This document shows positions 9,548-53,231 of a stretch of DNA of 64,000 nt, one piece after another (positions within the stretch are counted from its first letter, which is position 1; every line of letters starts with the position of its first letter). Origin of the DNA: Polyangiales bacterium. Lineage in GTDB: Bacteria > Myxococcota_A > Polyangia > Polyangiales > Ga0077539. The translations under genes and the position numbers were made by a program. The stretch spans positions 1 to 64,000 of the forward strand of contig JBGARZ010000018.1 in the NCBI GenBank assembly GCA_044229975.1, in the 5' to 3' direction. Under the pieces are notes generated by a model, which did no database searches, was not told the DNA's origin, and worked only from the letters and a program-made list of their open reading frames with translations.

Positions 9548-9602
9548 CGCGAAGTTCCCTGCCCCGCGGCAGCGCCCGCGAGCACCCGCGACGCCGCCCT
9601 GG
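9548..9602 (+). repeat. Dispersed junction repeat copy A (3' part only)
   Basis: ...ttccctgccccgcggcagcgcccgcgagcacccgcgacgccgccctgg. Confidence 0.8.
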
Positions 9603-9831
9603 CAGCGCGCGCGTCGGCACCCGCGACGTGGCCGCCCAGTCCGCCGTGAAGCTCGTCGACACCGTCGCCGCGCCGCTGGAGAATGGCTCCGACGAGGGCA
9701 AGTTCCTGCTGCTCCAGGGGCGGCCCATCGCCGAACCCGTCGCGCAGCACGGGCCCTTCGTGATGGACACCCGCGCGTAGATCCAGCAGGCCTTCTCGGA
9801 CTGCCAGCGCACCCGCTTCGGCGGCTGGCCC
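9601..9831 (+). pseudogene. Pirin C-terminal fragment
   Basis: [42 protein letters not shown]; starts at the end of repeat A. Confidence 0.85.
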
Positions 9832-9861
9832 CGTCCGATCAGCGGCCCTGTGCCCGGCGCT

Positions 9862-10152
9862 CTAGCGGATGCGCCAGCGCTCGACGACCACGCTCCCATC
9901 GCGTGTTGCGGTGACGGTCACGACGCCCGCGTCGCGGTCGATCACCATCGCGTACGGGAGGTTGTCGCGCGGGAACGGCGCCCGCCCGGGAGACTCGTCG
10001 GCGTGGTGCGATCCGACGTAGGCCCCGGCCCGCACCGGGACGCGCTGGAGCGGCGGGCAGACGATGCCGTCACAGGAGGTCACGTCGCTGCCGAGGCATC
10101 CCCCCGCGGCGATCGCGAGCGCGCCGATCAATAGGCTACCGGCCCTGGTCAT
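9862..10152 (-). CDS. Small putative lipoprotein
   Basis: LAIAAGGC lipobox; last gene of an overlapping three-gene run. Confidence 0.65.
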   Translation of the reverse strand: MTRAGSLLIGALAIAAGGCLGSDVTSCDGIVCPPLQRVPVRAGAYVGSHHADESPGRAPFPRDNLPYAMVIDRDAGVVTVTATRDGSVVVERWRIR

Positions 10153-10438
10153 ATCGCCCGCTCCCCCGTCCTGTCTCGCTCCCGCGTCCCTGCCAGCGAA
10201 ACGTCAGCGCCTCGCCGTTGGAGTCGGGGTGGAGCGTCACGTCGTACGTCTGCCAGGGCGTGAGATCGGTGGACGCCGCGCCGTCGACGGTGACGGACTC
10301 GAGTTCCAGCGTGAGCAGCTCCTGATCGTAGAGTCGGCACTGACAGGCCGAGGCGCGCTCGCCCCACGAGAGCGCGACGGCCGCGCCCAGCGCCAGCGCG
10401 CACAGCCGTCGCGTCGCGACGAGACCGAGGAGCCTCAT
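10136..10438 (-). CDS. Small secreted protein
   Basis: Signal peptide ending ASA-CQC; ATGA overlap with the upstream gene. Confidence 0.65.
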   Translation of the reverse strand: MRLLGLVATRRLCALALGAAVALSWGERASACQCRLYDQELLTLELESVTVDGAASTDLTPWQTYDVTLHPDSNGEALTFRWQGRGSETGRGSGRYDQGR

Positions 10439-11196
10439 GGCGTCGGTTCGCTCCTTCCCGCGTTGACGATGACGATCCACGCCGCGCCGTCGTCGTCGCC
10501 GCCGACGCGACCCGGCGTCGGGTCGTAGCCGAACACCAGCGCGTCGAGGAGCGTCCCCCGATCGGCGAGCGCGCCCGGCAGCATCGTGCGGCGGATCGCG
10601 TCGGTGACTGGCTCCATCGTCGACGCGTCGAGGGCCGCACCCGTCGCGAGGTTCACGCCGCGCACGCGCGGAATCACCACACCGGTGCCGCACCCGTAGG
10701 CGAGCTCTGCCCCGTCGCGCCACTGCGCTGGCACGAGCGTCCGCTCGGGGTTGCCCCACACCACGGGCGCCGCGAACACCGTCACGCCCAGCCGCGCGCT
10801 CACCGCGACGATGCCGCCGAGGTCGCTGGGCGGCGCATAGAACAAGAACGCGTCCGCGGGTGTCGCTGCCTCCACCCGCCGCGGCATCGCGTCGGGGATC
10901 ATCGCCGCCTCCGCGAGCGCCGCCGCCTGCGCGTCCGTCGCGCCCATCGCGGGCCCGCAGAACGCCTGGAACCCCGTCGGCCGCATCGTCGTGGCCGAGA
11001 CCCTCACGACCACCGAACACGCGGGCCGTCCCTCGCCCGGCGCGAGGAGCTGCGAGGCGAGCTGGTACTGGGTCAGCCCGCAGGCCTGCGAGGCGTCGAA
11101 GCCCGCGCGCGCGTCCGACCCGGCGTCCGTCGAGGCCGCGGTCGAGCCGCAGCCGAGCATCGCGAGCGCAACCAGCATGACTACCCGGATGCCCAT
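10435..11196 (-). CDS. Putative lipoprotein
   Basis: LAMLGC lipobox, DAG linker; TACGGT 8 nt upstream of the ATG. Confidence 0.8.
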   Translation of the reverse strand: MGIRVVMLVALAMLGCGSTAASTDAGSDARAGFDASQACGLTQYQLASQLLAPGEGRPACSVVVRVSATTMRPTGFQAFCGPAMGATDAQAAALAEAAMIPDAMPRRVEAATPADAFLFYAPPSDLGGIVAVSARLGVTVFAAPVVWGNPERTLVPAQWRDGAELAYGCGTGVVIPRVRGVNLATGAALDASTMEPVTDAIRRTMLPGALADRGTLLDALVFGYDPTPGRVGGDDDGAAWIVIVNAGRSEPTP

Positions 11197-11204
11197 CGGG
11201 TCTC

Positions 11205-11210
11205 ACCGTA
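11205..11210 (-). promoter_or_regulatory. -10-like hexamer TACGGT, leaderless spacing
   Basis: 8 nt before ATG 11196. Confidence 0.6.
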
Positions 11211-11308
11211 CCAGCGCACCGAGCGCCCCGCGACGGTGCCCGATTCGCGTCAGCGGGGTCGACGCGCCGCGGTTGACGTCGACACGGCATCCGCGGTCGC
11301 ATGGGACG

Positions 11309-11509
11309 ATGATGGACCTTCGCGGCGTTGCGCCCGCCCTCCTCGCGGCGTTCGCGTTCGGCCTCGTGGTGCGACCCGCGGACGCGGGCTCGCGCGCCCC
11401 GTCGTGCTGCAACCGCATGTGGGTCACCCCGGTGGGCGACCTCGTGCCTGCGAACCTCCCGGGCTTCTGGTGGTGGCCCGGCCCGGCCCGGACGCGGGCT
11501 CGTGGGTAG
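11309..11509 (+). pseudogene. N-terminal fragment of a secreted protein
   Basis: Signal peptide (ALLAAFAFGLVVRPADA), then VPANLPGFWWWP and an abrupt end. Confidence 0.5.
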
Positions 11510-11559
11510 GATTCTCCAGCACCTCCCAACACGGGCCTCGATGTAGGGAAGGTGATGCG

Positions 11560-12339
11560 ATGAGAGACCCACGGAGTGTCGCGGAGGCTCTGCGTTTGCG
11601 AGGAGCTCGTCGGGCTCTGGTCGTGGCAACCGTCTGTCAGATGGCTTGCGAACAGCACCCGACGCGGGCCGACGTGCGCGACTCGTTCGACGCAGGTCGC
11701 CGCGAAGCGGGAGCGCTCGACGGGAGCGGGCCATGGAGCGACGTCGCAGGGCCCGACGCCAGACCAACCACCAACCGTTGCCGCGAACTGTACGCGGAGA
11801 GCTTGGTCGTCTTGCCCAACTTGTTTAGGTCTCCCTGGGAAGTAGTCGCGGAGGGATGCCCTCCGCCGCATCTGATCGGTGAGCACTTCGTGGGACGCCC
11901 GCAGATGCAACGTTGTCGCGCCAATGCGAGACGCCTCCGCGAAAGGATACGGAGCACGTTCACCTGGATCGACGAGCCATTCCTTTGTGCGGCTCCCCCT
12001 CATCCCTCGCCCGTGCTTCGGAATCGGCGAGGCGAGTGGGGAGGGTTCCTCCGGCGAGTTCGTGCGGTCACCGCGACTCGTCGGCCAGCGTTGGATCAAT
12101 GCTACTTGTCGTGGTGCGCCGAGGGGGTGCGCGATCCGACGCTGGTGTCCACGTCGATGATCGCCGTCGACGTCGATCGTGCCGGAAGGGCCACCGAGGC
12201 AACCCGCGAATGTCCCCCGGGCGCAGAGTCTTATTGCCAATGCGTGCGCGGCGCCCTCGAGAGCGTCGAGTACCCCAGAGATGCACCGTACTCGTTCGGA
12301 TTCTGGCTGAGCCATCCCCCTTGTTCGGCGTCGCGCTGA
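11560..12339 (+). CDS. Cys-rich secreted protein or lipoprotein
   Basis: Hydrophobic stretch plus Cys, DAG linker, many Cys; visibly lower GC than neighbours. Confidence 0.6.
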   Translation: MRDPRSVAEALRLRGARRALVVATVCQMACEQHPTRADVRDSFDAGRREAGALDGSGPWSDVAGPDARPTTNRCRELYAESLVVLPNLFRSPWEVVAEGCPPPHLIGEHFVGRPQMQRCRANARRLRERIRSTFTWIDEPFLCAAPPHPSPVLRNRRGEWGGFLRRVRAVTATRRPALDQCYLSWCAEGVRDPTLVSTSMIAVDVDRAGRATEATRECPPGAESYCQCVRGALESVEYPRDAPYSFGFWLSHPPCSASR

Positions 12340-12470
12340 CGCGGTGACGGGTCGGGAGACTCCGGGGCAACGTGGAAACGCCACTGCACCCCGGCGATGC
12401 GGTCGGTGCGAGCGGGCGACTCGACGGCGGCGACGCGTCGTGATTCACCCCGGAGGGGAACATGAGCCGG

Positions 12471-12585
12471 CGATCCAACGGAGCACCCTCGGTGGGAAGG
12501 ATCGGCCGGAGTGGACCAAGCGCCCCTTTACGCACAGCTCCCCGACGCGGAGCAGCTCGCGCGAGCTCCCGCGACGCCGCCTTGG
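12471..12585 (+). repeat. Dispersed junction repeat copy B
   Basis: cgatccaacggagcaccctcggtgggaaggatc...gagctcccgcgacgccgccttgg; closest match to copy C. Confidence 0.9.
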
Positions 12586-12740
12586 ATGATCGACGCCGCG
12601 AGCGCGCTGTGCTCGAGGGTTCCGCCCGCCATCGCGTAGACGACCCCGTCGAGCCATTCGTGCTTCGCATCCCCCGCCGCTTCGAGCCGAAGGTACTCCG
12701 CGTACGACACTCGGTGGTGAACCGCCGCCGCGCTGCGCAT
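12585..12740 (-). pseudogene. Uma2-family endonuclease N-terminal fragment
   Basis: SYAEYLRLEAAGDAKHEWLDGVVYAMAGGTLEHSALAASII, cut at the end of repeat B. Confidence 0.9.
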
Positions 12741-12823
12741 GAACCGACGATGCACCCCAACCGCTCGCCTGGCTACGCTCCTCCGTTCGAGCGCGTCCGC
12801 GCGGGCCGCGATCGAGGAGGCCC

Positions 12824-14149
12824 CTACCAGTCCATCCGCGCGAGGGTGCCGGTCGGGTTGCGACCCAACGATCCCCAGCACCAGACACTGCGGTCGAAGC
12901 GAATGACGCACACGTTGTTGAAGCCCCCGAACAACCGCTCGGCCCCGTCGAGACCCACGACCTGCGCCGGGCGCGTCGCGCACGGATCGGAGCTCGCATC
13001 GCCCGTCGAGCAGGTGTCGGGTGGGGGGAAGCCGAGCATGCCGTAGGTGCCGCGCCCCCAGCACTGCACCGTGTGATCGGCCATGAGCGCGCACGTGTTG
13101 GAGAACGTTCCGACGACCGATCGCACGCCGCACAGGCCCGGATCGATCGGGGGGGAAAATCCCCCGGTCCGGCCGGACCCGAGCTGGCCGTGGATGTCGA
13201 ACCCGAAGCAGCGGGCGCTGGAGTCCGGCAGCCGGTAGCAGAGGTGCGAACTCCAGCCTGCGTGGTCGCGCGTGATCTCCGCCTCCGCGGGGATCGCGTC
13301 GGCGTAGCGCGCCACGAAGTCCGTGCCCAGCGACCGGTAGGCCCCCGACCGGAGCCGCGCGACCCAGCCCCCGCTCAGGGGCCAGAGCATCGCGACGTCC
13401 GAGATGCCGGGGACGGGCGAAGGAACCGACCGGTCCTCCGCAACGGTGAGGTGGTTGTAGTCCCCCCAGCACCAGACCGTGCCGTCACGCTTGACGGCGC
13501 ACACGCCTCCCAGGTCGCTCATCGCCAGGTGGACGACGTCCGCGACCCCGGCGACGAGCGCCGGGCGCGTCCGGCATGGCCCCACCGACGGACAGTCCTC
13601 GTCGCCTTCGTGCCCCGTGCCAAGCGAGCCGTGGGCGTTGGAGCCCCAGCAGCGCACGGTCCCGTCCCGATGGCGGGAGCACGTGGCGCTGCCGATGTTC
13701 GTGAGCACCTGCTCGACGCTCTCCAGCCCCGGAACCACCACCGGGCGCTCTCTGCTCACGCCGACCGTCCCGTCGCCGAGCTGGCCGTACTCGCTGAGCG
13801 CGATGCAGCGCACCGTCCCGTCGCTCATGCGCGCGCAGTCGACGGTGCCGCGCCCGACCGCCAACTCGACGACGTAGGGCGCGTCCGAAGCCGGAGCGTC
13901 CGCGACGGTGGCGTCGACCTCGACGATGGGCCTGCATACCCGGGCCCCGGCCTCGACGTCCGCCGGGGCGTCGGGCCTGCCAGCGCCCAGGGTCGCTACG
14001 TCGACGGCGACGTCGACGACCGCCTCCTCGATCATCACCGCGTCGTGGGCGTCGACCTCCACCCGTCCATCGGTCGCCGTCACTGAGGATGCGCAACCCG
14101 CGATCAAGGACGGCACAGCGACCCACATCAATGCCCGCACGCGCACCAT
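12824..14149 (-). CDS. RCC1/BLIP-II repeat lipoprotein
   Basis: LIAGC lipobox; repeated DGTVxCWG and GQLG motifs. Confidence 0.9.
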   Translation of the reverse strand: MVRVRALMWVAVPSLIAGCASSVTATDGRVEVDAHDAVMIEEAVVDVAVDVATLGAGRPDAPADVEAGARVCRPIVEVDATVADAPASDAPYVVELAVGRGTVDCARMSDGTVRCIALSEYGQLGDGTVGVSRERPVVVPGLESVEQVLTNIGSATCSRHRDGTVRCWGSNAHGSLGTGHEGDEDCPSVGPCRTRPALVAGVADVVHLAMSDLGGVCAVKRDGTVWCWGDYNHLTVAEDRSVPSPVPGISDVAMLWPLSGGWVARLRSGAYRSLGTDFVARYADAIPAEAEITRDHAGWSSHLCYRLPDSSARCFGFDIHGQLGSGRTGGFSPPIDPGLCGVRSVVGTFSNTCALMADHTVQCWGRGTYGMLGFPPPDTCSTGDASSDPCATRPAQVVGLDGAERLFGGFNNVCVIRFDRSVWCWGSLGRNPTGTLARMDW

Positions 14150-14201
14150 CAATCACCGAAGCCGACGCGGCGTCGAGGGCGGCCAGAGTTTTCTGCCGAT
14201 A

Positions 14202-14326
14202 GGCGATCCGTCGGAGCACCCTCGGTGGGAAGGATCTGCCGGAGTTGACCAAACGCCCCTCTACGCCTGGCCCCCATCATCCCCGCCCTGCGGCAGCTCT
14301 CGCGAGCTCCCGCGACGCCGCCTTGG
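14202..14326 (+). repeat. Dispersed junction repeat copy C
   Basis: ggcgatccgtcggagcaccctcggtgggaaggatc...gagctcccgcgacgccgccttgg. Confidence 0.9.
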
Positions 14327-14416
14327 CGAAGATCGGCCCAAGCCCGGACGGGGGCACCCGATCCGATGGCAGCGGTCGCCGCTCGAACTCCCGATCGCCC
14401 CGCCGGCACGCGCAGC

Positions 14417-17167
14417 ATGAAACCCAATGCATTGCTCCCATGGATGGCGGTGGCGTGTTCGTCGCGCGCGGTCCGGCCCGACCCTCCGGCGGCGCCCGCC
14501 ACCCGCGCGCCGGTCGCCCTGGCGCCCGCGGTACGGGCAGCCGCGGGCGTCGCTCCGTCGCGGATCCTGTTGAGGCCGCGGATCACCCACGCGTTGGAGC
14601 TGATGCCGCGCGACGGGGAGGTCCGCCGTCTCATCCTGTCGGGGCGACCGGCCGAACTGCGCGGCCGCGCGGTGCGCCTCGGGCGCGGGCGCTTCCTGCG
14701 CGACGTGGTCTTCGCGGCCCCCACCGAGGGCGGGCGCTGGCGCTTCGTTACGCAGGACGGGGTCTGGGACGCGGACGGCTTCCTGGGGCTTCCCCGGCGG
14801 GCGTCGGCGATGCAGGGCGCCGGGCGGGGCGTCGGGCGCGTCTGCGCGGCGCGGGCGGGCGGCGTCGAGGGCGTGCCCCCGCCCGACGCGGGCGCCGTCA
14901 TCGACGTCGCGTTCTCCGACGACGCGCTCGGCCTCGCGGTGACCGAGCCGGGCCTCGCGTGGGTCACCCGCGACGGCGGCGCACGCTGGTCGCGCCTCGC
15001 GATCGACGGCGCCGCGCTGTCGGTCGCCGCGGACCGCGACCGCCGCTGGCTCCGCACGAGCGCGGGCGCAGTGGCGGTCGACGCGGGTGGCCACGACGCA
15101 ACGACGGACCCGGCGCGCCTTCCGCGGCTCGAAGCGCTCGACGAGAACGATAACCTCGCGCGGACCGCCGCGCGCGACTGCGAGCTCGCGCCCCTCGACC
15201 CCGTCGAGGTCGCCTCGGTCGACGGCTCGCTCGTCGTGGCGCAGCGGGAGGAGCAGTGGGGCCTCTACGACCTCCGCGACGAGTCGTGGACGCCGCTCCC
15301 GACGCTCCCCGAGGGCTGCGGCTCCGACGCCGGGTGGCTCTTCGCGGGGCGCCTCCACGCGCGGTGCGGGCCCGAGCTATACGCGCTCGGCGACGACGGC
15401 CGCTGGTCACTGCGGCTGCGCGTGACCTCGTGCGGACCGGCCGTCTGCGTGGGCTCGGCCGACGGCGAGCGCGTGGCCTGCGAGGGGCGCTGCGCCGGCA
15501 ACGACGTCTGCGGCGCCGACCCGGTGTGGTGCGAGTCGGCGACGGGAGCACCTCCCGCGGAATGGCACGCGCCGTCGTCGGGGCCGTGGCGGCCGGTGGG
15601 TTACGTCGGTGGGCGCCTGTTCGCGGTCGAGCAGAACTTCGACCTCGGCGGCCTGCGCATGACCCTCGGCGACGAAGCCCCGCGGCCGCTCGTCGTCGCG
15701 GCCCCCGCGGACGCGCGGCGCGTCGACCGCTACTCCATCGGCGTGGGGCGCGACGGCCAGGTGCGGATGTTCGCGTGGGGGGACCTTCCGGCCAACGCCG
15801 GCGTCCTCGAAGGGCCGCCGGGCGGGCGCTTCGCGTGGCGCGCCCTCGCGCCGGGAGACACCCTCCCCGAGGGTCGACCGAACGGACGGCTGCAGCTCCA
15901 TGCCGACCACTTCACGGTCACGCTGACGCGGGACGACGGCACGCTGCTGGTCTCGCGCGGGAGCGCCGGCGCGTGGACGACGCTGACCGCCGCGCCGGAC
16001 GACCCGCTCGCGGCCGACGTCCTCGCGCACTCGGTCGGCGCGCCCACCGACCGGGTCTGGTTGAGTCTTTTTACCGGGGCCGCCGATCGATCGGCCGGCG
16101 CCCTGGTGCTCGACACGACCCATCCGCTGCGGAGCTCGGCGACCGACAGCCTGGGCCTCCCAGAGGCGCCGAGCGTGCCGACGCCCGCGATCGCGTGGGA
16201 CTGCGAGAGGCCCTCCACCGAGGAGCGGACGGACCCCTGGGCGGCGCTGCGAACGCTGCCCCCGATCGGCGCCGTGGGCGTGCAGGAGGGTGAGCGCGTC
16301 CGCCTGTACGACCCGGCGGTGGCGACGCCGGGTTCGTTCCTCGGCGTGGGTTTCGCGACGAGGGCGGAACTCGCGACCCGCGCCCTCCCCGCGCACAGCA
16401 CCGACGCGCTCGCCCGTGGTGAGTGGGCCCTCGCGACCCTCGACGCGCGGCGCGCCACCCTGCTCCGGGTCGAGGCGCTCTCCGGCGACCCGCGCTTCGA
16501 GACGTGGGCGATCGGCGCACCCTCTTCTTCCGGGCCGACCGCGGCGGTCCGCGTGCCGGGGCCCTTCAGCCATGCTCACGTCGTCGCCACGGCGCGGGAT
16601 GGCGCGCGCTCGGCGACGCTGGTCGCGACGAGCGCGCCCTGGGGCGTGGCGTGGTGGCTCGCGGAGGTGCGCCGCGACGGGTCGATGTCCGTGGCCCCGG
16701 TCGCGCTCGCGTCGCGCGAATTCGCAGGCCCCTTCCTGCTCGACGGCGTCGCGGGCCTCGCGCGCATCACTCCCGACGGGCGCGCGGTCGGCGGCCCCGT
16801 GGGCGCGTCGCCCCGGGTGCTCGCGGAGCGGGTGCGCGCCGCCCGCTGCTCCGCGTCGGCGCGGGGCGAGCTGCGCGTCCCGATCACCCACTCGTACGCC
16901 GTCCACGGGGCGCAGCTCTGGATCAGCGCCGTCGCCCACTACGCCTTCGACGGCGCGTCGCTCTGCCTCCGCTCGATCGGCGCGTTGTCGTCGAGCAGCT
17001 TCCTGCCCGCGCCGCCGGGCGCCCGCGCGCAGACCGACGACGACGACTTCGGGTCGTCGCGCTCGCCGCCGAGCTTCGCGCTCGCGCCGGAGGGCGCGGG
17101 GTGGGTCGAGCGGAGCGTCTACCGCGGCGGGTTCGCTCGCACGCGGTGCGTGCCGCGGGCGCGGTAG
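14417..17167 (+). CDS. Large (about 916 aa) lipoprotein, family L, with Asp-box-like motif
   Basis: MAVAC lipobox; DVAFSDD..G..VTEPG..WVTRDGGARW; C-terminal YAFDGASLCLR shared with paralogues. Confidence 0.85.
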   Translation: MKPNALLPWMAVACSSRAVRPDPPAAPATRAPVALAPAVRAAAGVAPSRILLRPRITHALELMPRDGEVRRLILSGRPAELRGRAVRLGRGRFLRDVVFAAPTEGGRWRFVTQDGVWDADGFLGLPRRASAMQGAGRGVGRVCAARAGGVEGVPPPDAGAVIDVAFSDDALGLAVTEPGLAWVTRDGGARWSRLAIDGAALSVAADRDRRWLRTSAGAVAVDAGGHDATTDPARLPRLEALDENDNLARTAARDCELAPLDPVEVASVDGSLVVAQREEQWGLYDLRDESWTPLPTLPEGCGSDAGWLFAGRLHARCGPELYALGDDGRWSLRLRVTSCGPAVCVGSADGERVACEGRCAGNDVCGADPVWCESATGAPPAEWHAPSSGPWRPVGYVGGRLFAVEQNFDLGGLRMTLGDEAPRPLVVAAPADARRVDRYSIGVGRDGQVRMFAWGDLPANAGVLEGPPGGRFAWRALAPGDTLPEGRPNGRLQLHADHFTVTLTRDDGTLLVSRGSAGAWTTLTAAPDDPLAADVLAHSVGAPTDRVWLSLFTGAADRSAGALVLDTTHPLRSSATDSLGLPEAPSVPTPAIAWDCERPSTEERTDPWAALRTLPPIGAVGVQEGERVRLYDPAVATPGSFLGVGFATRAELATRALPAHSTDALARGEWALATLDARRATLLRVEALSGDPRFETWAIGAPSSSGPTAAVRVPGPFSHAHVVATARDGARSATLVATSAPWGVAWWLAEVRRDGSMSVAPVALASREFAGPFLLDGVAGLARITPDGRAVGGPVGASPRVLAERVRAARCSASARGELRVPITHSYAVHGAQLWISAVAHYAFDGASLCLRSIGALSSSSFLPAPPGARAQTDDDDFGSSRSPPSFALAPEGAGWVERSVYRGGFARTRCVPRAR

Positions 17168-17280
17168 GCGTGGCGGGCGTCGGGCCCGCGTTGCGGGCGA
17201 TCAACGTCGACGTAGATGAGAAGATGGGCGTGCGCCCGGGAGATCCGGCACCGCGCCAACGGGCACGCGCGACCCCGAGG

Positions 17281-17395
17281 GTGGACCCACCGGGCGCCCT
17301 CGCCAGCGCCAACCCACCTGCGTTGAGCGAAGGCTCCTTGCGCGCACTTCCCCGCCCCGCGGCAGCCCCCGCGAGTTCCCGCGACGCCGCCCTGG
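17281..17395 (+). repeat. Dispersed junction repeat copy D
   Basis: gtggacccacc...ccttgcgcgcacttcccc...gagttcccgcgacgccgccctgg. Confidence 0.85.
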
Positions 17396-17610
17396 CGTTC
17401 GCCGGTGGGCCAAAGTACCGAGGTGAGGATCTGCGGGCCGAAGGCCTCGATGCGGTCGCGCCACTCCTGCTGCATGCGCACCTCGAAGCAGTGGTCGTAC
17501 TGGACCTGGTCGCGCCAGTCGCCCGGCTCCTGCGTACAGATGTAGAGCGTCATTCGATCGCGGTGGCGGTGGCGTGCGTGGAGTCCACGCCGGGTCGGCG
17601 ATGGTGTCAC
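17396..17610 (-). pseudogene. Fragment of an unidentified gene, cut at repeat D
   Basis: Protein-like LYICTQEPGDWRDQVQYDHCFEVRMQQEWRDRIEAFGPQILTSVLWP runs into the repeat. Confidence 0.45.
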
Positions 17611-17641
17611 GGGCGGCGGTCGGGACGCGAGCGGGTGGCGG

Positions 17642-18190
17642 TCACCCCCCCGTCGTGAGGCTCACTCGGAAGACGCTCTCGCCCCGGCGCCCCGGGCCGA
17701 CCGACGGGACGCGGGCGAGTCCCGCGCGGAGGCACTGGTCGAAGCGCGGGTCGGGGCTGCCGGTGAGGCCCGCGATGGTGACGCCGCCGCGCGAATCGAC
17801 GGCGAGCGTGATCTGCACCGACGCGTCGCGCACGGCGGGATTCAGCCGAAGTACGTTCTGCCAGCAGGTATTCACGAGGCGGGCGTTCGCGAAATCGCGG
17901 ATGGCTCGCGCGAGCCGCGCGCGCTCCTGTTCCTGCTCGCGGAAGCAGGGCGAGGTCGGCGGCCATTGGAACCGCCAGAACGGGTCCTCCGAGCCGGGCT
18001 CCGCGCGGGCGTAAGCATCGCGAGCCCAGCGATCGGTGAGCGCGGGTTCGGGGAGCGGCCGCCCGCAACGTCGGAGGGTCGCGGCGTCGGGGCGCGGCTC
18101 GTCGGGCCGGTGATGACGGCGCCGGGGTTGCGCGTCGGCGGCGCCGCCCAACAACGCCAACGCCGCTGCGAGCGTCACCATGGGTCGCAC
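17642..18190 (-). CDS. Secreted AgmX/PglI C-terminal (TonB-C-like) domain protein
   Basis: Signal peptide; CWQNVLRLNP..VQITLAVDSRGGV..FDQCL; paralogue of 52247..52774. Confidence 0.75.
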   Translation of the reverse strand: MRPMVTLAAALALLGGAADAQPRRRHHRPDEPRPDAATLRRCGRPLPEPALTDRWARDAYARAEPGSEDPFWRFQWPPTSPCFREQEQERARLARAIRDFANARLVNTCWQNVLRLNPAVRDASVQITLAVDSRGGVTIAGLTGSPDPRFDQCLRAGLARVPSVGPGRRGESVFRVSLTTGG

Positions 18191-18196
18191 GCCGCG

Positions 18197-18202
18197 AGCC
18201 TA
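18197..18202 (-). promoter_or_regulatory. -10-like hexamer TAGGCT
   Basis: 6 nt before GTG 18190. Confidence 0.6.
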
Positions 18203-18343
18203 CACCATCCGTCGGTCGGCTCGCTTCGTCCTCCAAAGCGGGACGCACCTTCGCCACGCAGCGGGCCGTCGGCGCGAGCGACCAGGTGCCTCCCGGTCAG
18301 CGAGCTCGCGCCCGAGTGCTCGACGTCAACTACATCTCCCCCC

Positions 18344-19486
18344 TCACTCGCGCGGAACGCCGCCTGGGATGTCGTCCGTCCGAACGTCGTAGGGCGTGAC
18401 CCAGAGCCTCGCGGTCGCACTCGTCACCAAGGCGCAGTCGAAGGTGGTGCGCGCGCCCGGCCGCACCGCGAAGATCACCGACGCTGCGCGCCGGGCGCCA
18501 TCGGGCGTCGTCACGTCGAGCGTGCGCGTCGTGAGTCCGACCGGGGCTTCCCACTCGACGTGGCCCCCCGGCAGCAGCGTCATCCCGTCGAGCGCGCAGC
18601 GGGTCGCGCCGGAGGTGAGGGCGATCGTCCCGGTGATCGGCGGGAGCGCCCCGCGGAAGGTCGCCACGCGCACGAACAGCCCCAACGAGGCGAGGACCAA
18701 CAGCGCCGAGGGCGCGAGCCTCAGCCCCAGCGAGGGCGACCGATCGGCGTGCGCTCCCTCGGCGAGGGCGCGGTTGGCCCGCGCGACGAGGCGGTCGAAG
18801 GTCGGGCGCTGGCGGGCGTTGTGGGCGACGAGCAGCGGGGGCGACGCGCCGTCCTCGCTGGCGACCCGCAGCACCGGCAGGTACGGCGCGGCGGGTTCGT
18901 CGGTGAGTCGGAGGCGCGGCTGCCCGCCGACGGGCGACTCGCGGTCAACGGCGGGGCCGCCGAGGCCCACCGAGCGGGCACGGGCGACGCGCCCGGCGGG
19001 GTCGATCGTGAGCGCGACGACGCGCGTGCGGCGCTCGGCGAAGAGCAGGGCCGCGACGCCCGCCAGCGGCGCCAGCCGGGACAGCGCGCAGGCCAGCGAA
19101 CTGCGACCGCCCGGGCGATGAAGGACGGCGAAGTAGTTCGCCGTGCCGTCGCGGAAGAACGCGCGGGCGGTGTCGGCGAGGCGGTCGTCGTCGCGCCACA
19201 TGTCCGCCGCCCCGTCGTAGTAGACGCCGCGCGGCGGGAGCGCGGCGGCGGGCCCGTCGACCGCGCGCTCGTCAGAGGAGTAGGCGCGATGGGTGGTGAG
19301 CTTGCAGTCCGCGCCCGCGGGGACGCGGATGCACTCGAACTCCGTCGCCTGCGTCACCCCGGCGCCGGCGAGCCCCACGAGCAACAGGGCCGCCGCCGCG
19401 CCCCGCCCGACGCCAAGCGGCGCGGTGACCTCGTGCAGTGCGACTAGCGGACCAGTCTGTGGTGCTTCGCGATACGGGGCATCCAT
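18344..19486 (-). CDS. Multi-pass membrane protein
   Basis: Start MDAPYRE at 19486; three hydrophobic segments; the supplied ORF extends upstream into integrase relic sequence. Confidence 0.7.
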   Translation of the reverse strand: MDAPYREAPQTGPLVALHEVTAPLGVGRGAAAALLLVGLAGAGVTQATEFECIRVPAGADCKLTTHRAYSSDERAVDGPAAALPPRGVYYDGAADMWRDDDRLADTARAFFRDGTANYFAVLHRPGGRSSLACALSRLAPLAGVAALLFAERRTRVVALTIDPAGRVARARSVGLGGPAVDRESPVGGQPRLRLTDEPAAPYLPVLRVASEDGASPPLLVAHNARQRPTFDRLVARANRALAEGAHADRSPSLGLRLAPSALLVLASLGLFVRVATFRGALPPITGTIALTSGATRCALDGMTLLPGGHVEWEAPVGLTTRTLDVTTPDGARRAASVIFAVRPGARTTFDCALVTSATARLWVTPYDVRTDDIPGGVPRE

Positions 19487-19509
19487 CGGGCGCGGTAGCC
19501 GCACAGGAT

Positions 19510-19680
19510 GCGGCAGGTCGCGCGATTGCACCAAGATCTTCCGATCACGACGCCCCGTGGTCGCGGCCGTGGTCGCCAGCCCTGGGTGCAGCGAGTGGCC
19601 CGAGACGAGGGTCGTATCGATCCCGGCGCAAGCCGCGAGCTCCTTGAGTGCTGAGCGCAACATTGCGACCATCGAGCCGG
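19510..19680 (-). pseudogene. Tyrosine recombinase/integrase C-terminal fragment
   Basis: LKELAACAGIDTTLVSGHSLHPGLATTAATTGRRDRKILVQ matches the SGHSLRxGxAT box; Arg changed to His; catalytic Tyr region absent. Confidence 0.8.
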
Positions 19681-19946
19681 CTTCCTACCTGGCTGTGACG
19701 GTCCACGGCCCGCGAGAGCCGTACTGCGCGTACTGCTTGAGGCGGCGCGCCATGCGTCGGTTCGGGGAGCCCCGCGTCGAAGTGGGTCGCATGGATGGCC
19801 GCGCCCCGAACCCAGCGCGGCGACCGCTACGAGTTTGCCTCGCGCCGTCGCGGCCCGTTCGGCGCCCTCAGCTCGCTCGCGCGGTACGGCATCGCAACCG
19901 ATGCTACATCCGCCCTCCGACGAACCGACGCTCCCGCCCGCGGCGC

Positions 19947-20972
19947 CTACAGGCGGAACGACGTGACGAGCAGCGACGCCGACGCGACGACCGACGCGAG
20001 TCCGAGCGCGGCGACGAGGGCGAGGCTCCGCCGACGATCGGCGACGCGGTACTACTGGAGTGCGGCGAGAGTGCCGATGCGGAGGTGGGTCGCCGTCGCG
20101 CTCGCCGCGTTGCGGTAGGTGCCCGACTCGCGCGACTCCGGCAGCACCACACACATTGCGCTGGTGCCCGGGTGGACAACGGCCCCCTGCGGCGCGTTCA
20201 CGACGATGTCGCCCTCACGAAGGACGCCGTCCGCGCCCTGCGTCGCCTCGCGCCAGGGAAGCGCGTGCGAGCGCTCGCGCCGTGACCACCGCGCCGCGAG
20301 CGTCGTCGCGCACACGAGCAGCGCGGTCGCGAGGGCGCGCAGGCAAGGGACCACGGGGCGCGACGCCTCCCACAGCGCGACGGTCCGCGGGTCGGGCTCC
20401 CGATACAGCACGGTCCACAGGATGATCGGGCCGCCCCCGCGGGAGGCTGTGCAGCGGTAGCCGTGCTCCTCGCGTCGATGGTCGTACGCGTAGAGGAGTT
20501 CGCCGGTGTTCGCTCGTCCGCTCGCGTGAGGGTCGCGCTCGGAGCCGTCCCTGGAAGCCTCATCCAGCAGGCACCACGACCGCCCGACGGTCGCGCTCTC
20601 GATCGTGACGGCGTGACTCGTATGGACGGAGAGGCCGGCGCCGACGCCGCTCGATCGGGACGTCTCGACGAGGGGCACTGGCCCCAGCATGCGTCGACAG
20701 ACCCTGGTGACTTGTGAGTAGTCCGACGAACCGTTGCCGTCCTGGCTCTCGCAGTCGGAGGGAGACGCGTCGCCGATCACCTCCCGCCAGGGACGGTAGT
20801 CGCGCAGCGGGTCTTCGGACGAGGAGACCCGTATCACGTGCTCCCCCGGAGTGGACGCCTCGTCAGCGCGCGCCTCGAAGTGCACCGTCGCGACGAGCGC
20901 GGCGAGCGCGGCCGCGATGGACGTCGAAGCGAGCACGCTGAACCGGGCGTCGGTTGGGGCATCGACGGTCAT
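19947..20972 (-). CDS. Membrane protein with extracellular Cys-rich domain; in-frame TAG at 20052-20054 removes the last TM helix
   Basis: GGAGG SD before ATG 20972; the frame continues LQ*YRVADRRRSLALVAALGLASVVASASLLVTSFRL*. Confidence 0.65.
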
Positions 20973-21176
20973 GGCGGGAGCCTCCGGGGGGTACTCATCG
21001 CACGGATGGTCGAGCAGTGTCCGACTGGCAGAGACCTCACGCCGCGTGAACCAGAACCACAGAGCATGCGGGCGGGCGGGCAACTCGGCGACGGGCTCCT
21101 TGAGCGCGAGGTAGTTGGGCGTCGCGTCGGTGAGCGCGTGAAGCGACGAAGGTCCACGTCGCGGGCTCAGGAGAAA

Positions 21177-21270
21177 GGTCAGACCAACCTGTCAGGTTGA
21201 TGAGCGCCGATCCACCCGGGTCAACCGAGCGCTCCCTGCGCGCCGCTCTCTGCGCCGAGTCAGCGCCCAC
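21177..21270 (+). repeat. Dispersed junction repeat copy G (conserved 3' end missing)
   Basis: agaccaacc...agcgccgatccacccgggtcaaccgagcgctccctgcgcgc aligns by eye with copies D, E and F. Confidence 0.65.
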
Positions 21271-21359
21271 GCCCCTCCCTTTCTCCATCGCGCGGACCAG
21301 ACGCGCGTGCCGTGCGCGCTGGCGCTGGCTCCCTCTCGCCGCGGCCGTGGGCGTCGGGG

Positions 21360-21365
21360 TACGGT
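21360..21365 (+). promoter_or_regulatory. -10-like hexamer TACGGT
   Basis: 6 nt before in-frame GTG 21372. Confidence 0.6.
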
Positions 21366-21371
21366 CGCAGC

Positions 21372-22421
21372 GTGCGTCGACTCCCCCGTGTGCATGGCGC
21401 CCGCGTCGATGGCGCGCTCTCCCTCGTCGCGTTCTTCGTCGCGTGTTCTTCGCGGCCCGTGGCTACCTCGCGCGACTCCGCGACCGCCGCGCAAGATCTC
21501 CCCTCGTCGGAGCAGGACGCTCGCCCCGACGCGTCTGCGGGGCGAACGCCAGACGATGCGGCGGTGAACGCCGAGCGATTGCCGCCTTGGATCCTGGGCG
21601 CGCTCGCCCCGCACTCGTCGCGCCTCTGGGCGACGCAGTCCGAGGCCGCCGGCGCCGCGGGCGTCGGCGCGACCGCAGCACCCGACCTGCGCTGCGACCT
21701 CGACCTCGACGGCCGACCCGACGCGCTGTACCTCCGCCCCGCGGTGGCCGTCCGCGACACCGGCCGTGGCTTCGTAGGCGAGCGCCTGGGATCGCCGGAC
21801 GGAGCCCGCGCTCCGCACGTCGTCGCGCACTTCGACTTTCGGGGAATGCCCCTCGTCGCGGTGGCCGAGGATGACGGCGCGGCGGCGGACGGTGCGGAGC
21901 GGACCGCTACGCCGGGCGTCGCCCTCTTCGGCTTTCCCGCGAAGGCTCGACCGCGGATGCTCTGGCAGCACCGCGCCGAAACCTGGGACTCGCCTCGGGG
22001 AGAGTGGGAGTTCGCGCCTCTCGGCGACGGCTCCCTGCGGGTCACCGGCCACTTGATGGTGCAGGGCCGAGACGCCGGTCGGGTGGTGACGTTCTTGTCC
22101 ATTCGAACGTACCCCGCGAACCGCCGCGCGGGTGAGCTCCTGGCCGCCTCCTGCTGGAGTCCAGAGGCGCGACCGGGGAGGACCTTTCCGGAAACGATCT
22201 ACAGCTGCCATCCGCGCCGGCCGTTCCGACTGCGCGACATCGAGACGGCTGCCGCGCCCACACGCGGGATCATCTTCCCCGCCCACACGATGGTCTGGCC
22301 CGTGTACGGTAGCGCGTCGGGCCTGCGCTGCGTGGGCGTACGTTGCGCCGGCTTCGGCACGGTCTGCGAGCATATCGGTTGGCTCGCCCTCGACCGCTCG
22401 ACCCCCTGCTACGGCGAGTGA
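21372..22421 (+). CDS. Putative lipoprotein with a DxDxDG motif
   Basis: FFVAC lipobox; CDLDLDGRPD. Confidence 0.7.
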   Translation: MRRLPRVHGARVDGALSLVAFFVACSSRPVATSRDSATAAQDLPSSEQDARPDASAGRTPDDAAVNAERLPPWILGALAPHSSRLWATQSEAAGAAGVGATAAPDLRCDLDLDGRPDALYLRPAVAVRDTGRGFVGERLGSPDGARAPHVVAHFDFRGMPLVAVAEDDGAAADGAERTATPGVALFGFPAKARPRMLWQHRAETWDSPRGEWEFAPLGDGSLRVTGHLMVQGRDAGRVVTFLSIRTYPANRRAGELLAASCWSPEARPGRTFPETIYSCHPRRPFRLRDIETAAAPTRGIIFPAHTMVWPVYGSASGLRCVGVRCAGFGTVCEHIGWLALDRSTPCYGE

Positions 22422-34581: not shown

Positions 34582-34606
34582 CGGAAGACGCGCCGTGGAG
34601 GGAACA

Positions 34607-34710
34607 GGTAGACCAACTGGGCCCTCTCGTTAGCACCGATCCACCCACGTCCCTTGCGCGCAGTCCCTGCCCACATGGCAGCTCCCGCAAGCTCCTGCGA
34701 CGCCTCCCTC
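34607..34710 (+). repeat. Dispersed junction repeat copy E
   Basis: ggtagaccaac...cccttgcgcgcagtccctgccc...aagctcctgcgacgcctccct; short internal deletion relative to D. Confidence 0.8.
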
Positions 34711-47976: not shown

Positions 47977-48738
47977 ATGAGCGTCTCCCCCGACGGCTAC
48001 CCGGGGATCTCTCGCGGGCCCGATGACCCGTGGCAGCACGTGGCGCCTGACATAGGCGACCCGGCCTTTGAGACGGTCGGCGGGGACCCGCTCACGGCGC
48101 CCCCACGCCTCTCGAGCGACGCCGCGACCGCGCGCGTGCTGCGGCGGGTGGGCGGCTACGACGAACAGTGCCGCGTCGCCGACGCCGGTCACCTCGCGCG
48201 ACTCGACTGCGAGGAGAGCGGCTCGCACGGCGCGGTCACCGCTTCGTCCTCCTTCGTCGACCCCGGCGGCGCGGTCCCGTCGGGCGTCGGCGGCCCGGAC
48301 CCCGCGCGACCCTGTGAGGGTTGCCTCAAGCGCGCCCGATGTCGCGCGCCCTGCGCCCTGCTCGCCCGCCTCGTCCCAGAGGAGGACGTTCCGGTCTGGA
48401 ACGAGGTCTCCTCCCCCGCGCTCATGGAGAGCCGCAGCGTCGATGAGCAGTTCATGGCGATGCCCGAGGCCCTCCTCGCGGACGAGCCCGAGCACCTCTG
48501 GCCCGTGGTCGTCGCGTACTACAGCGGGGCGCGGCTGCGCGCGGCGACGGCCGTGCTGACGCAGCAGCACGTGGCGGGCCAGTACCTCGACGGGGCGAGC
48601 CGCGCCGAGATCGGGACCGGCCGCGGGACCTCGCGCCAGGCCACGCACAAGGTGTTCTGGGCCGCGATCGGGCGACTCCAACGCGAGCTCGGGCCGCTGC
48701 TGCCGCGCAGCGCGCTCGCCGCGTCGACGGTCGACTGA
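47977..48738 (+). CDS. Putative DNA-binding protein: four-Cys cluster plus sigma-70 region 4-like HTH
   Basis: CEGCLKRARCRAPC; LTQQ..YLDGASRAEIG..RGTSRQATHK..AIGRL. Confidence 0.55.
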   Translation: MSVSPDGYPGISRGPDDPWQHVAPDIGDPAFETVGGDPLTAPPRLSSDAATARVLRRVGGYDEQCRVADAGHLARLDCEESGSHGAVTASSSFVDPGGAVPSGVGGPDPARPCEGCLKRARCRAPCALLARLVPEEDVPVWNEVSSPALMESRSVDEQFMAMPEALLADEPEHLWPVVVAYYSGARLRAATAVLTQQHVAGQYLDGASRAEIGTGRGTSRQATHKVFWAAIGRLQRELGPLLPRSALAASTVD

Positions 48739-48740
48739 GG

Positions 48741-48746
48741 TACCTT
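48741..48746 (+). promoter_or_regulatory. -10-like hexamer TACCTT
   Basis: 6 nt before GTG 48753. Confidence 0.6.
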
Positions 48747-48752
48747 CCCCCG

Positions 48753-49223
48753 GTGCGCCCCGCACCCGTGCTGCTGCTCGCCGCCCTCGCCCTCGCGGCG
48801 CCCGCGTCGGCCCAGCGCGAGCCGCCCGACCCGCTGTTCGTCCCCGCGGAGATGCCGACCGGGCGCGGGTGGTTCTGCTTCACGCATCGCCGCGCCAGCC
48901 GCTGCTTCCGTCGCGCGGGCCTCTGCGGGGACACCCGGAGCAGCGCGATCGCGCCGCACGCGCAGGTCGCGTATAGCTGCGGCCCGCCGCGGACCACCGC
49001 GCACTGCCTGCGCGTCGAGTGGCGGTGGGGCCCCTACGTGCGGTGCGCGCCGACGGCCGCGCTCTGCCGGGCGGAACGACGTCGGCTGACAACGCCGCCG
49101 CCGCCACACCAGCCAAACACGCCCGATCTCCCGCCCCCGACTGGCGTCTCGCGCTGCCACGCCGTGGGGGACGTCCCGTCGCGAGCCTCGACCGCTCAGG
49201 GTGACGCGCAGCCCGAGGGGTGA
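48753..49223 (+). CDS. Small secreted Cys-rich protein; paralogue of 58872..59360
   Basis: MRPA..AQRE.PDPLF, TAHCL, CAPTA..CRA.RRRLT, CHAVGDV. Confidence 0.8.
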   Translation: MRPAPVLLLAALALAAPASAQREPPDPLFVPAEMPTGRGWFCFTHRRASRCFRRAGLCGDTRSSAIAPHAQVAYSCGPPRTTAHCLRVEWRWGPYVRCAPTAALCRAERRRLTTPPPPHQPNTPDLPPPTGVSRCHAVGDVPSRASTAQGDAQPEG

Positions 49224-49641
49224 TGCAGCCCTTCGACTACGCCTTCCTCGACGCCGTGCTCCCCCACGTCCCGCGGTCGTGGAGGTCGCCGCGAACAACG
49301 GCAGCTTCACCGCGATGGCCCTGCCCGGCGCGATGCCCGCCAACGCCGCGCGGTACCTGCTCCAGGTCGAGCCCGTGGCCGTCGCCTACCAGCTCCTCAG
49401 CGTACCGTTCGTATGGCGGCAGACCACGGGGGGAAGCGCGACGGCTTCCCCTTCGTTGTCCACACCTTGCAGAGAATCTGCTCACCGTCTCGCATCAGCC
49501 CGTGAGCTGAAACGAACAGACTATCAGCGACAATCTCAACTTTCTTTCAACGAGCGCATGCACGCGATCTCCTCCACGGCGATCGCGCTCTTTGGTTACT
49601 TTGCTTGTCCGGCCACGATCGGTTCGGGGCAGTGGCCCCGG

Positions 49642-50823: not shown

Positions 50824-51665
50824 GAGCGCGTGGTTACACCGACGCGGTGACGTTGCGATCGTCTTGAAATCTCGTTGGATCATCCGTGTTCGGGACCAAA
50901 AAGCACGGCCTGTGCCTGATCTTCGACCATCTCCGCGAGCGTCCCGCAGGCGTCCGGCGAGCCCGCCTCGCAGCCGATGCGGTCGCGGCGGATGTCGCGC
51001 GCGGCCATGAAGCAGAGCAGTCCGCGCTCGCGCTCGCTAATATCGCCGGTGACGCAGTGCCGCACCATCGCCGCCGAGGACGAGATGTCGAAGGCGTCGC
51101 CGACAGCGCGCCGTGGCGGGGACGGAGCAGTGCGTCGAGCGCGGCTGACGGGGGGCTGAGAGGAGCGCGAAGAGGGGCCGCATCGGGAGTCCCGTCTTCG
51201 CGCCAATGCGTCCTGCTTGTCGAGGGTGGGCAGCGTAGCCTCGCGCTGTGGACCTCTCGCTCGAACAGTTTCCCATCCGCGCCGACCGCCCGGCGGACGA
51301 CAGGTTCTACTACACGCTCCACGACGCGCTCCGGCGCGAGCTCGGGCTCCCCGACGACGCGGTCATCGCCTGCGGCGGCGGCTGGGGAGCACGGCCGAAG
51401 GGCGTTCGCACCTGGCCGCGGCCAGGCAGGACGCTACGCGGCGGGCTCCGCGTGCCCGGCACCCGCAAGTCCACCTACGCCGAGGTAGTGCTGGTCGGCT
51501 ACGCGCTCTTCGATGACGACGACGTCGCCATCGAAGAGCGGCGACCTCAACCGCGCGATGCCCGGCCCCGCGCCAGTGTCAACGTTGCCCACGCCCAGTC
51601 GATACGTTCCGACCGGCACCCTCGACGGCGGGCGCGGTCCCCTCGGCCTCCGGCTCGACCGCTCG

Positions 51666-52250
51666 TCAGATGCTGACGCCTGTCTCCAGGTTCTTCGGAT
51701 TGAAGGTGTCGCAGGGCCACGGGCGCTCGGGGTCGCGCACCTTGTGAGCGTTGGCGTCGTCGATCTCGGCCGACAGGTCGCTCAGCGCCCGGTGGAAGCC
51801 GCGGAAGGCCTCGCGGCCCCGGCGGTGGGCATCGAAGACCCCTTCCGCTTCACCGACGCCCATGAGCCGGAGCATCCCGAGGCTGGTGAGCACCATCCCG
51901 AGCAGCCACTGCATCGACGACTTCACGTAGGCCGTCTCGGTGCCGGGGCGGATCTTCGTCGCCATGAAGGTCGGGTCGAGCACGTACTCGTGCATCGTAC
52001 CCACCGCCTCGTGCAGCCCCGTCACGCTCCAGACGAACTGCGCGATCACATCTACGATCGTCTCCGGCCACCGGCCCGTGAACTTCATCGTCGGCAGCGC
52101 CGTGTTGAGGTGGTTCCAGAAGCCGACGCTGTGCACGTCGTCCATGAGGGCATCGAGGGTGGCGTACCGGCCGATATAATCCACCACGAACGCGCGGACG
52201 ACGTCGTACGGCTTGAGCGCGTCGTGGCGCCGCACGCGAAGGTTGGTCAC
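51666..52250 (-). pseudogene. Lipoxygenase C-terminal fragment
   Basis: IAQFVWSVTGLHEAVG (iron-ligand His segment), LSDLSAEIDDAN, terminal NPKNLETGVSI ending in Ile; the N-terminal majority is absent. Confidence 0.75.
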
Positions 52251-52774
52251 CCGGCCGTCGTGAGGCTCGCGGCGATGTCCACCTCGACGCTCGGCCCCGG
52301 CCCGAGCGGAGAGATGCGGCCGATGCCAACCTCAATGCACGTGCGGAAGCGTGAGTCGGGGCTGTTGAGGACACGGACGGTGCCGAAGTGTCCGTCCGCG
52401 TCAACGACGATCCTGATCCGCACGTGGGCGGCACCGACGGCAGGGTTGATAAGCAGCAGGTTCTGCCAGCAGTTGCTGACGATGCGGTTCGCGTGGAAAG
52501 TGCGGATCGCGCGGTCACGCCGCTCCTGCTCTCGAAAGCAAGGCGACGTGGGAGGCCAGCGGAGCGCCCTTGGGGGGGGAGGGGGCCGAACGAGCCCCCA
52601 ATCGGGGATGCCGCGCGGATCGGCGACGGGTTCGGGGAGAGGCCGTCCGCAGCGTCGCATCGTCGCGGCATCAGGGCCGAGCTCCGGTCGAGGACGGCGC
52701 CGATGTTGGGCGCTGGCCACCTGTTCGGAGAGCGCCAACGCCAGCAACCCTGCGATCACTGCGCCGCGCCTCAT
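52247..52774 (-). CDS. Secreted AgmX/PglI C-terminal (TonB-C-like) domain protein
   Basis: PDAAT.RRCGRPLPEP, WPPTSPCFREQE and CWQN.L..NPAV shared with 17642..18190. Confidence 0.78.
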   Translation of the reverse strand: MRRGAVIAGLLALALSEQVASAQHRRRPRPELGPDAATMRRCGRPLPEPVADPRGIPDWGLVRPPPPPRALRWPPTSPCFREQERRDRAIRTFHANRIVSNCWQNLLLINPAVGAAHVRIRIVVDADGHFGTVRVLNSPDSRFRTCIEVGIGRISPLGPGPSVEVDIAASLTTAG

Positions 52775-52780
52775 GTCGCG

Positions 52781-52786
52781 ACGCTA
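52781..52786 (-). promoter_or_regulatory. -10-like hexamer TAGCGT
   Basis: 6 nt before ATG 52774. Confidence 0.6.
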
Positions 52787-52887
52787 CCAGAGCGCGGATG
52801 ACGGGAGCGGGCCACGTCGGTGCGACCCGACGTGTACTTCCACGAGCTCCCCTCCGCTTCTCAATCCAGCGCTACGGTTGGTGCTCC

Positions 52888-53115
52888 ATGAGCACCCGCC
52901 TCCGATGCTTCGCTGCACTCTCTTTGATCATGCACGCCGGCTGCTCCAGCGCGGGTGACGCCTCTGCCCCCACGTCGCAGCGTGTGACCTAAGTCGCGAT
53001 GGGCACCGCGCACGTCTGCGCGCTGCTCGATGACGGAAGCGTGCGCTGTTGCGGCCGCAACGACGCAGGGCAGTTCGGCGACGGCACCACGGTCGAGCGC
53101 ACGAGCGCGGGGGAT
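52888..53115 (+). pseudogene. RCC1-repeat lipoprotein N-terminal fragment
   Basis: [55 protein letters not shown], cut where repeat F begins. Confidence 0.8.
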
Positions 53116-53116
53116 C

Positions 53117-53231
53117 GGTAGACCAACCCGGTAGGCTCAGGAGCACCGCTCCGCTTGGGTCGACCGAACGCAGTTTCTCGCAGTTCCCCGTACCAGGACA
53201 GCTCCTGGTAGCACCCGCAACGCCGCCCTGG
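53117..53231 (+). repeat. Dispersed junction repeat copy F
   Basis: ggtagaccaacc...gagcaccgctcc...cgcagttcccc...agcacccgcaacgccgccctgg. Confidence 0.8.

Follow-up and report, generated by a model that had tools for sequence, protein, structure and literature searches.

The DNA analysed here (the window) comprises positions 1-64,000 of contig JBGARZ010000018.1 from a Polyangiales bacterium; below, G000 is this organism's own genome, other G numbers are relatives, C is a contig and L a locus. The window carries diverged copies of a repeat which was identified, by comparison with other loci, as the oriIS end (ori below) of a myxobacterial IS91/ISCR-family transposon without its transposase; such copies are called solos. 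A first copy on the plus strand (9532-9601, type II, ending in CGCCGCCCTG, 64% identical to its best copy in relatives) keeps the inner 70 nt, its ori half being gone. It is joined at its inner end to the 3' fragment of a pirin gene (9603-9780, plus strand, Pirin_C domain), which is 82% identical to an intact paralogue at C20:247735 that extends upstream. A minus-strand block at 9862-11283 is 84% identical to C19:378136-379558, which ends at the ori tip of another solo. The type II copy at 12469-12584 (plus strand) was recovered by a model built from relatives only. Its ori tip is replaced by a terminal repeat (GGCTCATG..., 12445-12468, minus strand, by sequence comparison) of an element which, from its open reading frame (ORF), we take to be IS1595-like, and its inner end cuts the 5' fragment of a Uma2 gene (12586-12710, minus strand; PF05685 at E 3e-4, below the cut-off, with homologues that extend further). 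Two more type II copies lie on the plus strand at 14195-14325 (ori tip GCCGATAGG intact; profile and alignment) and 17277-17394 (ori tip worn; profile), the left flank of the latter matching C15:1518-1607 up to position 17275. Profile search also detected two decayed plus-strand copies, one at 21170-21263 with the ori half only, the conserved inner end being lost, and one at 34600-34706 with an internal deletion and a degenerate inner end. The type II copy at 53110-53230 (plus strand; alignment, relatives' profile and motif count) cuts at its ori tip the remnant of an RCC1-repeat gene (52984-53109, plus strand, by homologue comparison). On the opposite strand, profiles detected a type I copy (ending in GAGCTCGCTG) at 4855-4987 and the inner half of a type I segment at 38392-38467. 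A lone ori tip (GGGGATAGG...) at 6876-6890 (plus strand) is followed from 6891 by the IS1595-like terminal repeat, as seen by sequence comparison.

The seven plus-strand copies had been listed in a sequence-only reading of this DNA, and all of them were found where it placed them. The exact end motif that it described in five copies was matched five times against 0.04 expected, and none of 100 shuffled sequences got to five. Its statement that all copies point one way (chance 1/64) fails because the two minus-strand members had been overlooked; orientation is 7 of 9 (two-sided p = 0.18), and the window copies are not independent of one another. The copy that it placed at 9548 keeps just the last ~70 nt, and that at 21177 is without the conserved end. 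The right boundary is sharp as described, but the element stops at TG, and the final G of the reported TGG belongs to the joined DNA. The breaks in pirin (copy 9548) and Uma2 (copy 12471) do fall at the repeat end, and homologues extend past them (tblastx on a reduced region); for the gene at copy 17281, a homologue search gave none. As reported, 12 nt separate copy 53117 from the stop of the gene at 53244-55880, and no inverted partner of the end was present among the 25 longest inverted repeats listed. The hairpin proposed at the repeat end is not conserved in folding or alignments: the suggested covariation check gave no consensus structure in two alignments and a mean z of -0.5 over 23 type II ends, and z-scores of repeat folding against shuffles lay between -1.7 and +1.7.

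Profiles built from relatives only recovered five window copies (4855, 12469, 14195, 38392 and 53110) with no hit in the reversed genome; the remaining four rest on a window-seeded profile and alignment. The window copies are 64-72% identical to the best copies in relatives. A single window copy used as BLAST query was too diverged and gave no match in 60 relatives, and profile search succeeded. No transposase was found on the window's contig by profile search, nor an intact element of the window's subtype in the own assembly. The window is an old region with worn copies, which cannot show the mechanism itself, and its own parent element is apparently no longer in the assembly. When the whole genome was scanned with an iterated profile (35 hits in 10 Mb), the copies proved clustered, with 18 neighbour pairs within 15 kb against 1.7 expected and a maximum of 6 in 2000 random placements, but they lay on both strands.

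The identity of the repeat was given by intact elements. A full-length element with a transposase had been suggested as a search target, and two own-genome copies were found to lie 105-108 nt downstream of transposase genes with a Y2_Tnp domain, one of these elements being intact, on C14. The intact C14 transposase contains PF04986 and PF14319 (Zn_Tnp_IS91) over cut-off, that is, an HUH Y2 domain and an N-terminal zinc-binding domain, and its relatives occur mainly in Myxococcota assemblies. Its closest characterised relative is ISCR1, with 38% identity; the transposase tree was a quick tree only, and L031 was mis-scored in it as its match ended early. On the gene strand, the intact elements have the order of stop codon, 70-115 nt, the motif GTTGGA(T/A/G)TCGGT-CA, a segment of 109-180 nt and the end GTTGGA-NNN-CYTAT-NNNC. 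The inner motif was present in 34 of 42 downstream rows and a strict CCTAT-type end in 19 of 42, with more by eye, three loci having been entered twice. ISCR1 and L027 have the same CCTAT-type end. The end matches the ori region of ISCR1 and that of a betaproteobacterial element, and the inner motif was not found in the ISCR1 ori region or in the betaproteobacterial element. Window copies align with the intact element L022 through the last base, after which they have G and L022 has A. Because of this layout, the strand on which the sequence-only reading described the repeat starts at the ori; the repeat's left end corresponds to oriIS and its sharp right end to the inner motif. The idea of a one-ended mobile-element terminus that builds the array is supported by the IS91-family end and the polar arrays in relatives, but the sharp right end is an internal site and the true terminus is the left one. 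It was also considered whether the right end could be a terIS upstream of the transposase, given its likeness to CGCCGCCATGG; this was dropped because intact elements show the same sequence beside the inner motif.

It has been reported that IS91 elements begin transposition at oriIS, produce no target duplication and frequently mis-terminate (accessible part of PMC13181058). Here no target duplication beyond chance was found, the flank overlap in 70 solos being equal to that of shuffled pairs. Terminal inverted repeats are absent, and the two ends hold a TCCAAC box in direct orientation. IS91, IS801 and IS1294 use a tetranucleotide target of the CTTG/GTTC type. No such target was seen here; a purine precedes the ori in 81 of 100 copies, and G(C) follows the inner end. 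This suggests less kinship with IS91 proper, not with the wider family. Upstream of the transposase there are GC-rich repeats and a palindrome, without a sharp common end. Three related arrangements were noted. A second, different IS91-type element (G000:C19:433729-435793) has a Y2 transposase preceded by a tyrosine recombinase gene and is without the inner motif. In the intact element L042 (G003:C118), the terminal segment is replaced by an inverted copy of the element's inner end, perhaps by template switching in a palindrome. At G000:C14:39285-41111, the inner end of a 180-nt solo provides the start codon (ATG) for a chimeric ORF whose last part is a piece of another IS91 transposase.

The inner site is fixed. 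In intact elements TG is followed by ACCGAATCCAAC and then the transposase, and in solos by G(C) and then unrelated DNA; the motif is kept across transposases that are only 45-80% identical. A profile search of eight congeners, in which 150 candidates were scored per genome, gave 31-102 matches in seven of them and one in the eighth, all of which are lower bounds. The inner end could be called in 119 of 138 distinct copies, 12 intact and 107 solo, and solos thus outnumber intact ends by about 9 to 1 in the sample. The base after TG was G in 96 of the 107 solos (GC in 79), counted with an end-calling pattern that demanded TG and misjudged a few ends, two or more of the 'solos' being worn intact ends. 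Independent of this pattern are the stop positions of BLAST matches. With queries from two other genera that run 60 nt beyond the site, the alignment broke off right at TG or at the base after it in 63 of 125, 19 of 41 and 25 of 39 rows; in the same searches 11, 11 and 7 rows continued as intact elements and 32, 8 and 3 ended earlier. In a third other genus, both solo matches ended within 4 nt of the inner site. The four BLAST query segments are mutually just 50-60% alike. Contigs from public runs showed loose ends at the ori and inner positions. Reads aligned to window positions 9000-18000 derived from relatives at low depth and gave no information on the junctions. Searching the inner motif alone over 251 genomes of the phylum gave about the background level and could not map its range.

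In the relatives, the copies form arrays that point in one direction. In congeners, 37 of 40 neighbour pairs within 15 kb point the same way, based on hand-entered rows sharing a contig among 150 of 434 matches listed. Recent arrays, in which solos are 96-100% identical to the intact element at the array's downstream end, were found on G002:C9, G008:C67, G003:C29, G003:C62, G019:C9, G011:C38, G026:C6 and G026:C27, and on own contig C14 with the 180-nt subtype. By hand count, 22 of 23 solos that are at least 95% identical to a same-strand intact element sit upstream of it; six G026 solos, for which the identical intact element is inverted, are not in this count. The contig stretch of G024:C43 has 14 same-strand copies in 33 kb and no intact element. 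In two head-to-tail dimers TG is joined straight to the ori G, an arrangement that would fit a circle junction.

The blocks between copies are, by their matches elsewhere, cut-out foreign DNA, including core genes of sister species. Often a single uninterrupted piece lies between two copies, as in a C15 block that matches C4:102533-101214 at both ends. The block beside a copy that is 99.4% identical to its parent is an operon fragment with one match per genome, 87% identical to the host's own operon and 75-85% to those of eight congeners. Further blocks that begin or end exactly at a segment are 79-90% identical to the host's loci (core loci overall 79-93%), and one G002 block is nearer to G000 (93%) than to G002's own copy (90%). 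Two blocks of G026:C6 (204121-206964 and 215474-217289) match class 1 integron DNA at ~100% and occupy their gaps exactly, with no base left over. They are overlapping pieces with intI1, sul1, a GNAT gene and IS6100, ~100% identical to plasmid records, headed by two different segment types and bounded at four distinct cut sites, each after G; intI1 abuts the sul1 start without cassettes and qacE-delta1, and one block has an intact sul1. Two Uma2 pieces on C15 overlap by 231 nt in the same form. Blocks span 0.1-18 kb and often cut through genes. The solos L138 and L140 have a common right flank and different left flanks. In an empty-site test with 64 solos, no convincing homologue spanning both flanks was found, three dimer artefacts aside, and over the flanks of 31 copies no left flank runs on into any right flank. 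Plasmid or phage matches were absent from two G024 stretches and from window positions 9400-22000, and G026:C27 had only two short ones. Cargo from a distant taxon was seen in one array only, since such matches are otherwise scarce or none.

The repeat's identity, both boundaries, the polar arrays and the exact foreign blocks are direct observations, and from the junctions we infer how solos arise. Probably the transposase starts rolling-circle copying at oriIS, halts at the inner site and links the end released there to foreign DNA. The HUH transposase would nick at the ori and then again between TG and A at the inner site, 109-180 nt in, and would also cut DNA that enters or passes by, typically between a purine and a following G. 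The TG end of the segment would then be joined to the start of the cargo and the far end of the cargo to another copy's ori, either in a single step or via a circle of segment plus cargo. Repeated rounds could produce arrays of alternating segments and cargo, closed by a last segment and the transposase, beside an intact element.

Several observations weigh against this mechanism. It had to be read from other loci because the window is without a transposase and its copies are so far from those of relatives. The reciprocal joint, foreign DNA attached to the transposase half of the inner site, was not found among the matches listed. The inner cut lies 6 nt from the common TCCAAC box and the ori cut 12-13 nt from it, hence the one site is not the equivalent of the other. 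In the own genome, just 11 of the 18 neighbour pairs within 15 kb have the same orientation. Less DNA was fetched downstream than upstream of intact elements, which bears on the count of upstream solos; one solo (G024:C204) lies downstream of its intact element, and the identity gradient along the G026:C27 array is not strict. Homologues were available for 7 of 31 left and 13 of 31 right flanks, hence few empty-site tests were informative; a weak 70% match spans a junction at L092, and both flanks of copy 17277 are collinear with one G001 locus, which fits insertion with deletion. Arrays may also have arrived whole in their present host instead of growing there.

An unlikely alternative is that the copies are miniature ends of the IS801 type, made as simple insertions by premature termination, whose flanks were later shuffled by deletion or RecA recombination, the arrays being debris. 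IS801 makes right-end miniatures of 229, 360 and 679 nt, and such fragments have been argued to be mainly recombination substrates (accessible part of PMC3189936). The age of the window copies and the collinear G001 flanks of copy 17277 agree with this. However, it would leave simple insertions, of which the 64 solos gave none, and matching left and right flanks, which the 31 copies did not have. The four class 1 integron junctions fall at four sites, whereas simple insertions would give paired ones, and the position of solos upstream of the intact element in all but one of 23 cases also speaks against debris. Another explanation that we consider improbable is a two-step read-through, in which a solo inserts simply in a donor, transfer re-initiates at its ori, and the downstream DNA is carried to the ori of resident elements; arrays may also pass from one species to another as blocks. 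IS91 and IS801 are established cases of one-ended transposition (accessible parts of PMC13181058 and PMC6354349), the flanks shared by L138 and L140 fit, and the end products would be the same as under direct capture at the inner site. But read-through requires common simple-insertion intermediates, none of which was found, and the overlapping pieces on G026:C6, which come from one small foreign source, belong to two segment types.

It is very improbable that metagenome assemblers joined unrelated contigs via identical repeats of 120-180 nt. The relatives' assemblies are incomplete and fragmented, and some arrays do have 100% identical copies. However, the copies in the window and on C15 are 61-95% alike and hence not collapsible, every segment-cargo junction must be present in the DNA even if the blocks are wrongly ordered, simple insertions that were mis-joined should have left matching flanks, which were not seen, and independent contigs show both boundaries. 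It is more remote still that the repeats are integron attC sites recombined by the genome's IntI, although an integron integrase over cut-off is encoded at C4:248120-249070 and complementary CCAAC/GTTGG boxes stand at the two ends of some type I copies. The attC of the integron in this genome is a different 91-nt hairpin, family hits are missing within 140 kb of intI, the repeat is no more stable in folding than shuffled sequences and has no consensus pairs, and the blocks cut through genes; folding, the own attC sites and the continuity with IS91 elements rule this reading out. Least credible of all is an orphan ISAs1-type inverted repeat, a lead that came from a resemblance to CAGGGC alone. 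In intact elements this hexamer is internal and lies beside the inner motif, with a Y2 transposase gene upstream of it (L043), and the parent enzyme belongs to the HUH Y2 transposases. The 70 solos showed no more target duplication than expected by chance, paired inverted repeats around a DDE transposase were not seen, and the intact elements refute this reading. The chromosomal integron at G000:C4:241000-249070 has an IntI over the TIGR02249 cut-off, low-GC cassettes and 91-nt attC hairpins, and is ended by a large insertion sequence.

Integrons build cassette arrays with IntI acting on attI and attC sites, and the enzyme gene lies at one end. The arrays described here similarly have a repeated site between acquired blocks, one direction and an enzyme gene at one end, but the enzyme is an HUH transposase instead of a tyrosine recombinase, the repeat does not form a hairpin, and the blocks are arbitrary fragments that often cut genes. 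Miniatures of IS801 are without transposase, keep the ori end, stop internally by premature termination and can be mobilised in trans (accessible part of Bardaji et al. 2011, PMC3189936). According to the same partial source, they were recovered as sacB insertions, and their end is a tetranucleotide whose surroundings show no repeat, palindrome or consensus; the bare tetranucleotide end is also given in the accessible part of PMC6354349. An intact ori end and a fixed internal stop are common to these miniatures and the present solos. Unlike them, the solos have as inner end a conserved 14-nt motif that shares the TCCAAC box with the ori, bracket foreign blocks in polar arrays and exceed intact ends ~9 to 1. 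In complex class 1 integrons, ISCR1 has variable genes on its ori side (accessible part of PMC6218425). The myxobacterial elements resemble ISCR1 (record NZ_CP065344.1) in having the ori ~230-250 nt downstream of the gene, the CCTAT end and variable captured DNA on the ori side. However, ISCR1 is bound up with the 3' segment of the integron; here the repeat unit is a 109-180-nt piece of the element, with up to ~14 per array. For ISCR28, capture between two sequential oriIS has been reported (Yuan et al. 2024, as described in the accessible part of PMC12772301), which is like the present case in that a gene is caught between a remnant ori end and an intact element. The cases differ in that single resistance genes are concerned there, with no mention of a fixed inner cut or long arrays in the accessible text of PMC12772301. 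Helitrons use rolling-circle HUH chemistry, make no target duplication, capture gene fragments and have many non-autonomous copies (accessible part of PMC5714925); the present elements differ from them by a prokaryotic Y2 enzyme without helicase domain and by having no conserved terminator hairpin.

Miniature IS801 ends and gene capture by ISCR elements are thus already known. A conserved inner cut motif that feeds polar arrays, or these myxobacterial arrays, was not found described in the literature searched, which was mostly non-subscription. We suggest tentatively that a myxobacterial IS91 clade evolved a second cut site within its end and serves, like an integron, as a platform for DNA acquisition. 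Its HUH enzyme would fragment incoming foreign DNA, from sister species, plasmids and possibly prey, and place the pieces in order between copies of the ori segment. If so, the arrays would be both a route of gene gain and a record of DNA met by the cell. IS91/ISCR elements are the suspected capture agents of many resistance loci, and their ori-side capture is inferred and poorly explained. Here hundreds of natural junctions fix two cut sites to the base, and a substrate of 120-180 nt makes the capture question directly testable. If the capture model holds, arbitrary foreign DNA can be fixed without sequence homology; one relative has then taken an intact sul1 from a class 1 integron by this route, and such arrays may serve as an environmental sink, or a relay, of resistance genes.

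The IS1595-like element and its 37-nt miniature (with ends GGCTCATG) recurrently insert in the ori tip of the IS91 segment. Such insertions were found in the window at 6891 and 12468, in the own genome at G000:C14:48174-49203, C36:290273-291302 and C1:42837, and at loci L135, L145 and L147, with an 8-nt duplication in C14 and L145. No account of such an insertion was found in the literature searched. From its position, the element looks like a parasite that inactivates the origin.

Some further features of the window were noted. Rfam gave no match in it. Positions 1-144, at the contig start, are the end of a repeat that was found at 99-100% identity on four other contigs. Two divergent DsbA/thioredoxin-repeat genes at 29745-34581 form a large inverted paralogy, the second being 86% identical to C32:625714-628634. 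The stretch at 48661-49289 (629 nt) is 96% identical to G001:C172, compared with 66-75% for neighbouring matches, and is judged from this to be a recent transfer.

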